From Escherichia coli (GTDB taxonomy: Bacteria > Pseudomonadota > Gammaproteobacteria > Enterobacterales > Enterobacteriaceae): a stretch of DNA of 64,000 nt. Position 1 is the stretch's first letter. Each line of letters starts with the position of its first letter. This document shows, piece by piece, positions 20,218 to 56,596 of this stretch. Under the pieces are notes generated by a model. It saw only the letters and a program-made list of their open reading frames with translations. It had not been told where the DNA came from and ran no database searches. The translations under genes and the position numbers were made by a program. The stretch lies in NCBI RefSeq assembly GCF_009931435.1, contig NZ_CP043414.1; one strand, given 5' to 3'.

Positions 20218-21504
20218 TTACTGATGATTCATCATCAATTTACGCAACGCAGCAAAATCGGCGGGCAGATTATGCGAAAGCAAGGGTAAATCAGCACGTT
20301 CTGCCAGCTCTTTTGGCAGATCCAATGTTTCACCGAGAATCGCTTCCACGCTCTCTTTAAATTTCGCCGGATGCGCGGTGCCGAGGAACAAGCCATATTC
20401 GCCTGGATGCAACTGGTCACGCAGCGCACGATAAGCTACGGCAGCGTGCGGCTCCGAGGTATAGCCCAGCGCTTTTAACTCACGCATTGTCTGTTGCGTG
20501 GTTTCATCATCTACGGCTGCATAACCCAGCTCTTTCAGTTGCCAGATTTTGCGGCGGAACAACTCTTCCACACGCGGCCAGTTGTTCGGTTGACTCACGT
20601 CCATCGCGTTGGATAACGTCGCCTGAGTCGCTTTAGGGGACCACTGCCCGTCGTGCAGGAAACGCGGCACTGTATCGTTCACGTTAGTGGCAGCGATAAA
20701 ACGCTTCACCGGCAGGCCAAGAGATTTCGCCAGCAGGCCCGCAGTCAAATCGCCGAAGTTACCGCTCGGCACCGAGACAACCAGCTGGTTGCGCGCTTCC
20801 TGCGGCAGCTGCGCAACAGCTTCAAAGTAGTAGCAAATCTGCGCCAGCAAACGGCTGATGTTAATGGAGTTAGCAGAGTTTAGCCCCAGCGCCACTTTCA
20901 GTTCTTCATCATCAAACGCCTGCTTCACCAGCGCCTGACAGGCATCGAAATCGCCGTCGATGGCAACAGTTTCAATATTGCCGCCCAATGTACAGAACAG
21001 TTTTTCTTGCAGTGGACTGATTTTGCCTCTTGGATAGAGGATAACCACTTTCACATTCGGTAAACCGTAGAAAGCATGAGCCACTGCCGCTCCAGTATCA
21101 CCGGAGGTCGCGGTCAGAATGGTCACTGGCTTATCGCCCGCAATATGGGTCAGCATTTGTGCCATAAAGCGACCGCCGAAATCTTTAAATGCCAGTGTTG
21201 GCCCATGAAACAATTCCAGACAACCGACATCGCTTTCAACATTGGCGACCGGAGCCGGGAAGGCAAACGCCGCGCGCACGCGCTCTTCCAGTATTTCCTG
21301 CGGGATCTCATCACCAATAAACGCCGAGAGGATCTTCGCACTGCGGGTGACAAAATCCAGCTTCAGCATCTCATCAATTTCAGTCAGGCTGAATTCCGGC
21401 AGGTCGTGCGGGAAAAACAGCCCCTGATTTTTGCCCAACCCCTGGGTTACGGCTTGCGCAAAGCTGACCTGCTCATTGTGATCTTTCAGATTGTAGAGTT
21501 TCAT
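20218..21504 (-). CDS. thrC: threonine synthase
   Basis: 428 aa MKLYNLKDHNEQVSFAQAVTQGLGKNQGLFFPHDLPEF. Confidence 0.98.
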   Translation of the reverse strand: MKLYNLKDHNEQVSFAQAVTQGLGKNQGLFFPHDLPEFSLTEIDEMLKLDFVTRSAKILSAFIGDEIPQEILEERVRAAFAFPAPVANVESDVGCLELFHGPTLAFKDFGGRFMAQMLTHIAGDKPVTILTATSGDTGAAVAHAFYGLPNVKVVILYPRGKISPLQEKLFCTLGGNIETVAIDGDFDACQALVKQAFDDEELKVALGLNSANSINISRLLAQICYYFEAVAQLPQEARNQLVVSVPSGNFGDLTAGLLAKSLGLPVKRFIAATNVNDTVPRFLHDGQWSPKATQATLSNAMDVSQPNNWPRVEELFRRKIWQLKELGYAAVDDETTQQTMRELKALGYTSEPHAAVAYRALRDQLHPGEYGLFLGTAHPAKFKESVEAILGETLDLPKELAERADLPLLSHNLPADFAALRKLMMNHQ

Positions 21505-42407: not shown

Positions 42408-43052
42408 ATGGCTCGCACAAAACTGAAATTCCGGCTGCATCGGGCAGTGATTGTCCTGTTCTGTCTTGCCTTGTTAGTGGCGCTGATGCAGGGGGCATCA
42501 TGGTTTAGTCAAAACCACCAGCGACAGCGTAATCCACAGCTGGAAGAACTGGCCCGCACCCTGGCGCGGCAGGTAACGCTGAACGTTGCGCCGCTGATGC
42601 GCACCGACTCGCCGGATGAAAAACGTATTCAGGCGATCCTCGATCAGTTAACGGATGAAAGCCGCATCCTCGACGCGGGCGTGTATGACGAACAAGGCGA
42701 TCTTATCGCCCGTTCTGGCGAAAGCGTCGAAGTGCGTGACCGGCTGGCGCTCGACGGTAAAAAAGCGGGCGGCTATTTTAACCAGCAGATTGTCGAACCC
42801 ATTGCAGGGAAAAATGGTCCGCTTGGCTATCTGCGCCTGACGCTCGACACCCATACGCTCGCCACCGAAGCTCAACAGGTGGATAACACCACTAACATTT
42901 TACGCCTGATGTTGTTGCTCTCGCTGGCAATCGGCGTGGTGCTGACCCGCACGCTGCTACAGGGTAAACGCACCCGCTGGCAGCAATCCCCCTTCCTGTT
43001 AACCGCCAGCAAACCGGTGCCGGAAGAGGAAGAAAGCGAGAAAAAAGAGTGA
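42408..43052 (+). CDS. ytjB: membrane protein YtjB (Smp)
   Basis: 214 aa MARTKLKFRLHRAVIVLFCLALLVALMQGASWF. Confidence 0.9.
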   Translation: MARTKLKFRLHRAVIVLFCLALLVALMQGASWFSQNHQRQRNPQLEELARTLARQVTLNVAPLMRTDSPDEKRIQAILDQLTDESRILDAGVYDEQGDLIARSGESVEVRDRLALDGKKAGGYFNQQIVEPIAGKNGPLGYLRLTLDTHTLATEAQQVDNTTNILRLMLLLSLAIGVVLTRTLLQGKRTRWQQSPFLLTASKPVPEEEESEKKE

Positions 43053-43079
43053 CCCATTACTACAAGAAAGGAAATCGTT

Positions 43080-44096
43080 ATGTCCACATTACGCCTGCTC
43101 ATCTCTGACTCTTACGATCCGTGGTTTAACCTTGCGGTGGAAGAGTGTATTTTTCGCCAGATGCCCGCCACGCAGCGCGTTCTGTTTCTCTGGCGCAATG
43201 CTGACACCGTGGTGATTGGTCGCGCGCAGAACCCGTGGAAAGAGTGTAATACCCGGCGGATGGAAGAAGATAACGTTCGCCTGGCGCGGCGCAGTAGCGG
43301 TGGCGGCGCGGTGTTCCACGATCTCGGCAATACCTGTTTTACCTTCATGGCTGGCAAGCCGGAATACGATAAAACGATCTCCACCTCGATTGTGCTCAAT
43401 GCACTGAACGCGCTCGGTGTCAGCGCCGAAGCGTCCGGACGTAACGATTTGGTGGTGAAAACCGCCGAAGGCGACCGTAAAGTCTCAGGCTCGGCCTATC
43501 GCGAAACCAAAGATCGTGGCTTCCATCACGGCACCTTGCTACTCAATGCCGACCTTAGCCGCCTGGCAAACTATCTCAACCCGGATAAAAAGAAACTGGC
43601 GGCGAAAGGCATTACGTCGGTACGTTCCCGCGTGACCAATCTGACCGAATTGCTGCCGGGAATTACCCATGAGCAGGTTTGCGAAGCCATAACCGAGGCC
43701 TTTTTCGCCCATTATGGCGAGCGTGTAGAAGCGGAAATTATCTCCCCGGACAAAACGCCGGACTTGCCGAACTTCGCCGAAACCTTTGCCCGCCAGAGTA
43801 GCTGGGAATGGAATTTCGGACAGGCTCCAGCGTTCTCGCATCTGCTGGATGAACGCTTTACCTGGGGCGGCGTAGAACTGCATTTCGACGTCGAAAAAGG
43901 CCATATCACCCGCGCCCAGGTGTTTACCGATAGCCTCAACCCCGCACCTCTGGAAGCTCTCGCCGGACGACTGCAAGGCTGCCTGTACCGCGCTGACATG
44001 CTGCAACAAGAGTGTGAAGCGCTGTTGGTTGACTTCCCTGAACAGGAAAAAGAGCTACGGGAGTTGTCGACGTGGATAGCGGGAGCGGTACGGTAA
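43080..44096 (+). CDS. lplA: lipoate-protein ligase A
   Basis: 338 aa [57 protein letters not shown]. Confidence 0.96.
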
Positions 44097-44127
44097 CTCG
44101 CTGATTAAAATATCCAGGGAAGGAAAT

Positions 44128-44391
44128 ATGATCGATTTGAAGAACCAGGAACGGGAGATTATCAATTTAATGTTCAGCCAGGGTATATCCTGACTAACCG
44201 CCGTGCGTATCAGGCATAAACTATCACTTGCTGAAGTTAGTAAAATGTTGGGTATCTCGATTAATTCTCTAAAACAAATCGAAAAGACGGAACGGCTTAG
44301 TTCAAACATCAAAAACAAAATGGCAGGAATTTATGGTTGTCCGCCAGAGTTGCTGATATGCCCTTACTGGATGACGGCTGAACATAAATGA
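44128..44391 (+). pseudogene. short XRE-type HTH ORF interrupted by an in-frame TGA; occupies the position of yjjJ in K-12
   Basis: ATG at 44128 with strong SD (GGGAAGGA); frame reads MIDLKNQEREIINLMFSQGIS-TGA-LTAVRIRHKLSLAEVSKMLGISINSLKQIEKTERLSS...; TGA at 44191-44193; HTH-like helix pattern. Confidence 0.4.
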
Positions 44392-44489
44392 ATAGATTCG
44401 TGAATAGATACTCGAATGGATTTAATTTTCTATCTATATGAAAAATAATAGTAAATCTATAAATCAGTCGCTATTGATGAATAGATACT

Positions 44490-44519
44490 AAAAAGCCGGA
44501 GCGGTCTCCCGCTCCGGCT
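44490..44519 (-). terminator. deoD rho-independent terminator
   Basis: agccggagcgg-tctc-ccgctccggct hairpin followed on the minus strand by a U-run. Confidence 0.75.
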
Positions 44520-44551
44520 TCACACGACAATCGCCTTTCAGCGAAACACAA

Positions 44552-45271
44552 TTACTCTTTATCGCCCAGCAGAACGGATTCCAGTGCGATTTTGATCATG
44601 TCGTTGAAGGTGGTCTGACGCTCAGCGGCAGTGGTTTGCTCGTGAGTGCGGATGTGGTCAGACACGGTGCAGATGGTCAGGGCTTTCGCGCCAAACTCTG
44701 CAGCCACGCCGTAGATACCAGCCGCTTCCATTTCCACGCCGAGGATGCCGTATTTTTCCATCACGTCGAACATTTCGCCGTCCGGAGAGTAGAACAGGTC
44801 AGCGGAGAACAGGTTACCAACGCGAGCATCAATGCCCAGTGCTTTAGCTGCATCTACCGCGTTACGCACCATGTCGAAGTCAGCGATAGCTGCAAAGTCA
44901 TGGTCTTTAAAACGGATGCGGTTAACTTTGGAATCGGTGCAGGCACCCATACCAATCACTACGTCACGCAGTTTTACGTGCGGCAGAACTGCGCCACAGG
45001 AACCAACGCGAATGATTTTCTTCACGCCGAAATCGGTGATCAGTTCTTTAGTGTAGATGGAGCAGGACGGGATACCCATACCGTGGCCCATTACAGAAAT
45101 TTTGCGGCCTTTGTAAGTACCGGTGAAGCCCAGCATACCGCGAACGTTGTTCACTTCACGAGCATCTTCAAGGAAAGTTTCAGCAATATACTTCGCACGC
45201 AGCGGGTCGCCTGGCATCAAAACTACGTCAGCGAAATCGCCCATTTCTGCATTAATGTGTGGAGTAGCCAT
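44552..45271 (-). CDS. deoD: purine nucleoside phosphorylase
   Basis: 239 aa [36 protein letters not shown]. Confidence 0.98.
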
Positions 45272-45327
45272 CATTTTATCCTTTTTGTGACATATTAAAG
45301 GCGGAGTCACTGCTCCGCCCAAATCCA

Positions 45328-46572
<1,245 letters not shown>

Positions 46573-55006: not shown

Positions 55007-56596
55007 TTAATGCTCGCGAGTCTGGTGGAACTGAACGTCCGGATAACGTTCCTGCGCCAGGCGCAGGTTGACCATGCTGGTAGCGATGTAAGCGAGGTTA
55101 TCGCCGCCATCAAGCGCCAGTTGGCTTTCGTTCTTACGCTTGAACTCTTCGAATTTCTTCGCGTCCGCACATTCTACCCAGCGTGCAGTGGCAACGTTGA
55201 CTGACTCATACACTGCTTCAACGTTGTATTCGCTCTTCAGGCGCGCTACCACCACATCAAACTGCAGCACACCAACCGCACCAACGATCAGGTCGTTGTT
55301 GGAAATCGGACGGAACACCTGCACCGCGCCCTCTTCGGAAAGCTGTACCAGCCCTTTGAGCAGCTGTTTTTGCTTCAGCGGATCTTTCAGGCGGATACGA
55401 CGGAACAGTTCCGGCGCAAAGTTCGGGATACCGGTGAACTTCATCATCTCACCCTGGGTAAAGGTGTCGCCGATCTGAATAGTGCCGTGGTTGTGCAGAC
55501 CAAGGATGTCGCCCGGATACGCTTCTTCAACATGCGAACGGTCGCCCGCCATAAAGGTCAGCGCGTCGGAGATCACCACATCTTTCGCGGTGCGCACCTG
55601 ACGCAGCTTCATGCCTTTTTCATATTTACCGGATACCACGCGCATAAACGCCACGCGGTCGCGGTGTTTCGGGTCCATGTTGGCCTGAATTTTAAATACG
55701 AAGCCGGTAAATTTATCTTCGCTCGCCTCTACGGTACGGGTATCAGTCTGACGCGGCATCGGCGCAGGTGCCCACTCTACCAGGCCATCCAGCATATGAT
55801 CGACGCCGAAGTTACCCAGCGCAGTACCAAAGAACACTGGAGTGATTTCGCCCGCAAGGAACAATTCTTTGTCGAACTCGTTAGACGCGCCTTTCACCAG
55901 TTCCAGTTCGTCACGCAGCTGCTGTGCCAGATCTTCACCAACCGCAGCATCGAGATCCGGGTTATTCAGCCCTTTAACAATACGGACTTCCTGAATGGTG
56001 TGACCTTTACCACTCTGATAGAGATAGGTTTCGTCTTTATAAAGGTGGTAAACGCCTTTAAACAGCTTGCCGCAGCCAATCGGCCAGGTGATCGGCGCAC
56101 AGCCGATTTTCAGCTCGTTCTCAACTTCATCGAGCAGCTCCATCGGATCGCGGATATCACGGTCAAGTTTGTTCATAAAGGTGAGGATCGGCGTATCGCG
56201 CAGACGGGTAACTTCCATCAGCTTACGGGTACGATCTTCAACACCTTTTGCGGCGTCGATAACCATCAGGCAGCAGTCCACCGCCGTCAGGGTACGATAG
56301 GTATCTTCCGAGAAGTCTTCGTGCCCGGGGGTGTCGAGCAGGTTAACCAGGCAGTCGTGATACGGAAACTGCATCACAGAGGTGGTAATGGAGATCCCAC
56401 GCTGCTTTTCCATCTCCATCCAGTCCGACTTAGCGTGCTGGTTGGAACCACGGCCTTTTACTGTACCGGCAGTCTGAATGGCCTGTCCGAACAGCAGCAC
56501 CTTCTCGGTGATGGTCGTTTTACCGGCGTCCGGGTGAGAAATAATGGCAAAAGTGCGGCGCTTCGCCACCTCTTGCAAATAAGGAGACAACGTCAT
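55007..56596 (-). CDS. prfC: peptide chain release factor 3
   Basis: 529 aa [37 protein letters not shown]; GTPase. Confidence 0.97.

Follow-up and report, generated by a model that had tools for sequence, protein, structure and literature searches.

The gap between lplA and deoD measures 455 bp in the window (the whole stretch of 64,000 nucleotides of Escherichia coli DNA that was analysed), with lplA ending at 44096 and the deoD stop codon starting at 44552, as the first-pass annotation had it (Table 1). The neighbourhood (ytjB-lplA ... deoD-deoB) is core chromosome in all genomes. The 87-codon frame described earlier for this gap is present with its Shine-Dalgarno sequence, its ATG, an in-frame TGA followed by C, and a terminal TGA at 44389-44391; RefSeq labels this ORF 'helix-turn-helix domain-containing protein'. 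Homology to K-12-like strains, which carry yjjJ (also hipH) here, is lost at the lplA stop codon (44095/44096) and regained at 44383, the complement of the yjjJ ATG. From there the 169 bp upstream of the kinase gene (44383-44551), start codon included, are common to the window and the K-12 YjjJ/HipH locus, and it is this old hipH leader that supplies the last two codons and the stop of the HTH ORF. Of the deletion junction that had been suspected, the breakpoints are real (lplA stop codon and yjjJ ATG), but what they enclose is a replacement by 286 unrelated bp and not a deletion of the K-12 sequence.

Table 1. Features of the lplA-deoD interval and its flanks, in window coordinates.
Feature	Position	Strand	Remark
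lplA (lipoate-protein ligase)	43080..44096	+	left flank
allele-specific segment, 286 bp	44097..44382	none	stands in for the 1,329-bp yjjJ/hipH CDS of K-12-like strains
Shine-Dalgarno GGGAAGGA of the small HTH gene	44117..44124	+	3 nt 5' of the ATG; read directly
87-codon small XRE-fold HTH gene, pseudogene here	44128..44391	+	intact form WP_000566247.1 in closest genomes
TGA nonsense codon, codon 22 (Trp22 TGG>TGA, G>A at 44193)	44191..44193	+	
retained hipH/yjjJ start codon (CAT on + strand)	44383..44385	-	right-hand replacement junction
proximal box ATCTATTCA	44389..44397	-	-12 from retained ATG
proximal box ATCTATTCA	44401..44409	-	-24 from retained ATG
degenerate proximal box ATCCATTCG, 2 mismatches	44413..44421	-	-36; Salmonella has ATCCATTCA in the same slot
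56-nt spacer	44422..44477	-	expected place of hipH promoter elements
distal box ATCTATTCA	44478..44486	-	-101; flush with T-run of deoD terminator
deoD intrinsic terminator	44493..44520	-	12-13 bp G+C-rich stem, then UUUUU; z = -4.3
deoD (purine nucleoside phosphorylase)	44552..45271	-	right flank; stop codon 44552-44554

A scan of the window for consensus promoters and terminators returned one weak plus-strand promoter-like site at the start of the ORF and missed the obvious deoD terminator, while promoter positions predicted in hipH leaders were inconsistent between genera, and no promoter is claimed for the window. An Rfam scan of 43900-44800 at E <= 1 gave only an unrelated, sub-threshold match to a Mycobacterium sRNA, lying on the terminator. 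On the minus strand, the retained hipH ATG opens a 27-codon ORF (44302-44385; MFSRHPVRAYQQLWRTTINSCHFVFDV) that is antisense to the HTH gene and unrelated to HipH; if the orphaned hipH leader were still transcribed, it would yield an antisense RNA to the HTH gene.

The two states of this slot were counted in 5,426 complete E. coli genomes, the HTH allele with a 61-bp piece from inside the ORF as the probe and the hipH allele with K-12 yjjJ. The HTH allele is carried by 4,073 of them (about 75%) and K-12 yjjJ/hipH by 1,348 (about 25%), and as these counts add up to 5,421, each allele excludes the other. The 455 bp of the window were matched in 4,925 of the 5,426 genomes, and in 4,037 the match covers 80% of the length or more. 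The interval had been rightly placed as the yjjJ position, in that the slot between deoD and lplA is the same, but the K-12 state that served as the reference is the minority one and the HTH allele the majority; the notion that the small ORF is a product of deletion from a K-12-like arrangement is not borne out by an allele of this frequency. The haplotypes of the surrounding lplA-deoD-deoB segment (43000-46000) are unusually deep for E. coli. Over these 3 kb, 2,831 of 5,424 genomes fall below 95% identity, and lplA dS between the window and other strains is 0.23-0.25, a depth which suggests that the alleles surrounding this polymorphism of hipH and HTH are old or introgressed.

Is the small ORF nevertheless kin to yjjJ? 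It had been proposed to be the N-terminal HTH remnant of yjjJ after an internal deletion, and the shared position, the yjjJ ATG kept at its right-hand edge and the fact that YjjJ itself has an N-terminal HTH (PMC8262856) give that proposal some appeal. The two genes lie on opposite strands, however, and sequence comparison with seven yjjJ orthologues was negative throughout: BLASTP between the ORF protein and YjjJ returned only chance matches of 6-12 residues, and the allele-specific segment (44097-44382) showed no similarity to yjjJ of seven genera by blastn (word size 7) or tblastx (best E 0.31). No HipA_C (PF07804) match was found by Pfam in the ORF protein. The YjjJ HTH is of the winged type (ISQATFSRL...GKARATRYAL), whereas the ORF encodes a five-helix XRE fold, and translation of the minus strand from the retained ATG gives only the unrelated 27-residue frame. 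We regard descent of the ORF from yjjJ as next to impossible. What does persist of the yjjJ locus is its 5' regulatory region, with the ATG and the repeat array, so that the idea of a locus remnant stands for that part and fails for the ORF. A separate case, E. coli WB61 (L020:2449-2640), has the first ~47 yjjJ codons abutting lplA; its sequence contains Ns and it was not used as evidence, and what is annotated there as a partial 'transcriptional regulator' might be the true leftover of a yjjJ deletion, such as was first pictured.

That the ORF codes for a small XRE-type HTH protein, as its letters had suggested, is supported by Pfam, by an AlphaFold2 model and by Foldseek. Pfam HTH_3 (PF01381) passes marginally, at 23.6 bits against a gathering cut-off of 23.0, and Sigma70_r4 scores 25.3 (cut-off 24.1) on the same stretch of the protein; in a distant orthologue (P0078) HTH_3 falls below its cut-off, at 20.6. 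The AlphaFold2 model (pLDDT 89.5) has a five-helix fold of the Cro/C1 type (helices 22-29, 34-41, 45-54, 59-69 and 73-76), and the top Foldseek matches in the PDB are all XRE proteins, namely CylR2, DdrO, SinR, 434 Cro, P22 c2 and restriction-modification controller proteins, with probability 1.0, rmsd 1.5-2 A over 53-60 residues and target TM-scores of ~0.7. Sequence search of the PDB found CylR2 only (E = 0.0055). Compared with small XRE/Cro-C1 regulators such as CylR2, 434 Cro, the N-domains of P22 c2 and SinR, and C proteins, the HTH protein shares the five-helix fold over residues ~22-76 and a similar size, but adds a helix at the N-terminus (4-18) and a tail at the C-terminus, and comes without a partner gene and without a recognisable operator of its own. 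The best family match is phrog_7241, a phage transcriptional regulator (E = 2e-9), of whose 122-residue profile only the C-terminal half is covered; phage relatives are 30-38% identical, and phage regulators are the nearest non-orthologous relatives. The small XRE gene of the replacing segment is likely of mobile-element ancestry. PADLOC assigned a generic HTH model only. The protein does not qualify as a HipB-type antitoxin either: BLASTP with a HipB sequence gave no alignment, and there is no Hip kinase gene in the HTH allele.

Orthologues of the HTH protein are confined to Escherichia/Shigella and one other enterobacterial genus. The distant one, an 87-aa metagenomic orthologue with 40-43% identity (L007), also lies between lplA (90% amino acid identity) and deoD, and a scan of genome contigs with peptide patterns recovered two Escherichia loci only. 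A further candidate of 69% identity (P0077; L005, L006) was discarded because of systematic changes of the C>T type (R>W, A>V, S>F/L, P>L); it looks like a database artefact from bisulfite-converted or damaged E. coli reads.

The in-frame TGA at codon 22 is peculiar to this strain. Over the 455 bp, the closest genomes reach 99.3% identity, and they have TGG at codon 22 and an intact 87-aa CDS; TGA at this codon occurs in none of the 5,426 complete genomes, 987 of which differ from the 61-bp query at the TGA base only. Trp22 is invariant in the family, including the syntenic orthologue of 40-43% identity. The W22* product is a 21-residue peptide in which the whole HTH domain is lost, and the HTH gene is therefore a pseudogene in this strain. 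A base-calling or assembly error, with the gene intact in the real strain, would equally produce a single G>A change private among 5,426 genomes, and an exact look-up of the 62-aa product downstream of the TGA found no record. The site has no homopolymer, however, and in nature this gene has very commonly been hit by independent nonsense and frameshift mutations, so that a real mutation is unsurprising. We consider such an error unlikely, and read the TGA as a private TGG>TGA nonsense mutation.

Programmed recoding of the TGA, by selenocysteine or by regulated read-through, was also weighed. The C that follows the TGA counts in its favour, as TGA followed by C is reportedly the weakest stop context in E. 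coli (a 1995 finding of Poole, Brown and Tate). So does the tryptophan that read-through inserts, which is the ancestral residue here (PMC10570021). Read-through of UGA by Trp-tRNA(Trp) amounts to 2-4% in K-12 (PMC10570021), and at a few per cent it would restore the wild-type Trp22. Yet the relatives have TGG without exception, among them the 987 genomes identical over the rest of the surrounding 61 bp, and none has TGA; no SECIS or other Rfam structure was found in 43900-44800 at E <= 1; and elsewhere among the strains the gene is broken at different codons, by TAG or by frameshifts. Recoding is accordingly extremely improbable. Set beside ordinary nonsense pseudogenes of E. coli and Shigella, the private nonsense mutation presents the same single-base TGG>TGA change and the same independent disruptions in other lineages, and differs in nothing of substance, the one nuance being the original Trp, which leaky decoding of UGA would put back. 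The first-pass annotation had counted this as the second accessory ORF of the window with an in-frame TGA followed by C. A crude and noisy coding-potential scan of the window flagged in-frame stops between coding-like segments at 20881-21063, 23588, 24719 and 55202, among them a TGA-C at 55202-55204, and one of these may be that other ORF.

Disruption of the HTH gene is by no means restricted to the window. A Q50* allele (TAG; annotated 'internal stop') is present as an exact match in 1,686 genomes or more, and of all carriers of the HTH allele at least 41% have an inactivated gene. Frameshifted, shortened and insertion-interrupted versions are also numerous in the protein database. In three database variants of 93 and 81 aa (P0037, P0041 and P0044) the ORF is broken after about codon 57 by unrelated sequence (REGANKQVISSQADSLIKISRIW...), which is probably inserted DNA and a further independent disruption. 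The dN/dS of the HTH gene is 0.1-0.3, rising to 0.66; that of lplA is 0.01-0.10. All in all, the HTH ORF is a real protein-coding gene that is under weak constraint and expendable.

The three direct repeats reported downstream of the HTH domain are real. The exact unit TGAATAGAT reads TGAATAGATTC at 44389 and TGAATAGATAC at 44401 and again at 44478, and a fourth, degenerate copy, CGAATGGAT at 44413-44421, stands in 12-bp phase with the copies at 44389 and 44401. Counting both strands, the whole 64-kb window has no more than five exact copies, of which three lie inside 98 bp; with the same sites conserved across genera, this clustering is not due to chance. The TGA of the box at 44389 also serves to terminate the HTH ORF. 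All of the repeats fall in the segment that is common to yjjJ-carrying strains, and are thus no peculiarity of the HTH allele. In the yjjJ orientation they form boxes at -12, -24 and -101 (exact) and -36 (two mismatches) from the retained ATG, a layout that has the registers seen in K-12, Salmonella, Kosakonia, Erwinia and Cedecea. The hipH gene that should adjoin this candidate operator array is absent from the window, where only its ATG remains, followed by 286 bp unrelated to hipH. The boxes in the window are the orphaned control sites of the missing hipH.

We therefore put at about 80% the probability that the interval is a non-hipH allele composed of two parts, a pseudogenised XRE insert (44097-44382) and the old hipH 5' control region (44383-44551). 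Under this reading the hipH CDS would have been swapped for a segment with a small XRE gene, leaving behind the hipH ATG, the four boxes and the deoD terminator. The replacement was probably a single event of long ago, as the distant orthologue L007 has the same junction, with its stop codon inside a degenerate box, TGAACAGAC. Relative to K-12 YjjJ/HipH, a monocistronic HipA-family kinase, the window has the same deoD-lplA slot and the same upstream 169 bp with the start codon, but lacks the HipH CDS and has in its place an unrelated ORF on the other strand and of one fifth the size. Two further Enterobacteriaceae loci, in which YjjJ is 69% identical (L010:1856-2823 and L011:201-692), have four REP-like repeats between deoD and hipH together with a 163-aa ORF resembling a REP-associated tyrosine transposase, which indicates that the deoD-hipH slot accepts other insertions too.

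Upstream of hipH itself, the -101/-36/-24/-12 layout recurs in seven genera, including Escherichia, Salmonella, Citrobacter, Kosakonia, Cedecea and Erwinia, the syntenic YjjJ orthologues outside Escherichia being 49-70% identical. With the window's own array counted, 27 of 32 box slots are exact. The spacer between the distal and proximal boxes is constant in length (54-56 nt), and its sequence is 45-60% identical between genera, about the identity of unrelated AT-rich DNA. A candidate array was accordingly defined as ATCTATTCA at 12-bp phase, ending ~3-6 nt before the ATG, with a distal copy ~65 bp upstream of the array. Metagenome contigs were scanned with an exact pattern of two boxes at 12-bp phase, which matched at least 120 loci. 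Among the 120 matches listed, 26-27 loci have a YjjJ/HipH homologue starting 0-36 nt after the last box; these homologues are mostly 34-57% identical to that of E. coli (two are of a near-identical E. coli type) and lie on contigs of 43-67% G+C. A distal box, 65-100 nt upstream, is also present in 16 of the 25 non-identical hipH loci among the matches listed. The exactness of the proximal boxes follows from the construction of the scan, so that only the adjacency to hipH and the distal boxes count as independent evidence. The metagenomic homologues share an N-terminal winged-HTH recognition helix of the (I/V)SQ(P/A)(T/S)xSR / SQPTVSR type. The remaining ~90 of the matches listed have unrelated downstream ORFs or none, and look like chance matches or minisatellites. 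Loci with the distant HipH homologues (34-57% identity) and their boxes include L024, L026, L041, L043, L044, L064, L066, L075, L080, L085, L090, L095, L107, L108, L117, L120, L121, L130, L136 and others.

By this distribution the boxes belong to hipH and not to the small HTH ORF. The first-pass annotation had offered a different use for them, as iteron-like sites of the small protein acting as a regulator, and one could extend this to hipH boxes taken over by an active HTH protein after the replacement. The gene does end in the first TGAATAGAT repeat, its stop codon being part of the box, deep lineages of the HTH allele have preserved the boxes well, and the predicted DNA-binding fold is a confident one. 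The boxes nevertheless accompany hipH in taxa that lack the ORF, down to 34% HipH identity, and there is no array in L007, the single distant orthologue, but one degenerate copy only. The sites lie downstream of the gene and not at a promoter that would be open to autoregulation; the usual target of XRE dimers is an inverted repeat and not a direct one; and the gene is dead in at least 41% of its carriers with no visible loss of boxes. Use of the repeats by the small HTH protein is thus very unlikely, and any DNA target of that protein is putative. Iterons of a replicon are likewise not what these repeats resemble, given a core chromosome context, the absence of a rep gene and their identity with the hipH leader.

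Some observations on the persistence of the boxes bear on hipH-less strains. The boxes are largely intact in deeply diverged HTH-allele genomes (dS up to 0.3), which would not obviously be expected of sites that are orphaned and nothing more, and this is the one observation that keeps alive the idea of their continued use by something. Some decay is visible all the same, in the degenerate -36 box and in the loss of a unit in two divergent Escherichia. One proximal 12-bp unit is missing in Escherichia sp. E1V33 (L008:3256-3412) and in E. coli SCPM-O-B-8794 (L009:3256-3411); lineages thus differ in how many tandem boxes they have.

In hipH-carrying bacteria, the boxes are most likely an operator bound by HipH's own N-terminal winged HTH, in a candidate autoregulatory arrangement. 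HipH is the presumed binder because the boxes and the recognition helix are co-conserved across homologues of 34-95% identity, although another conserved factor could bind them. Autoregulation by HipH would fit two published observations: the N-terminal HTH of HipH 'may bind DNA' (PMC8262856), and c-di-GMP acts on the promoter of hipH by way of a regulator that was left unidentified (PMC11452175). In the literature searched, no description of the ATCTATTCA motif or of a HipH operator was found, and searches for the locus tags and protein accessions returned nothing relevant.

The nearest precedent is the hipBA promoter, where four HipB-binding sites autoregulate an operon for a HipA-family kinase (PMC8262856). 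Like the hipBA operators, the hipH boxes are several short copies distributed across the promoter and leader region of a gene for a Hip kinase, the presumed binder is an HTH encoded in the same locus, and the proposed purpose is to keep a toxic kinase under autorepression. Unlike them, the hipH boxes are not palindromes but 9-bp direct repeats at 12-bp phase with a distal copy ~65 bp away, and the presumed binder would be the winged HTH fused to the N-terminus of the kinase, with no separate HipB, its binding having been inferred. In the window, the kinase gene itself is missing.

A broader hypothesis would join these strands, and as a whole it is doubtful. The array would be a HipH autoregulatory operator across Proteobacteria, with binding of c-di-GMP to HipH relieving autorepression; the hipH and HTH alleles would form an ancient polymorphism, in place before Escherichia diverged from one or more other enterobacterial genera; and in hipH-less strains the boxes would be kept by some factor, possibly the small XRE protein. 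If this were true, derepression of HipH by c-di-GMP would account for the reported induction of hipH at the promoter level.

The feature in the window is in itself ordinary, an annotated and often broken accessory gene whose TGA is an ordinary mutation. The wider consequences concern hipH, which has been tied to persister formation in biofilms of uropathogenic E. coli (PMC11452175). Three quarters of complete E. coli genomes are without hipH and have the alternative allele in its place, and results on hipH from K-12 or uropathogenic strains are therefore not transferable to most strains. The wider value of the analysis lies in this lack of hipH from most E. coli and in the candidate HipH operator, which is sharply defined and deeply conserved, and whose four-box layout on a 170-bp fragment makes autoregulation, and a possible link to c-di-GMP, testable.
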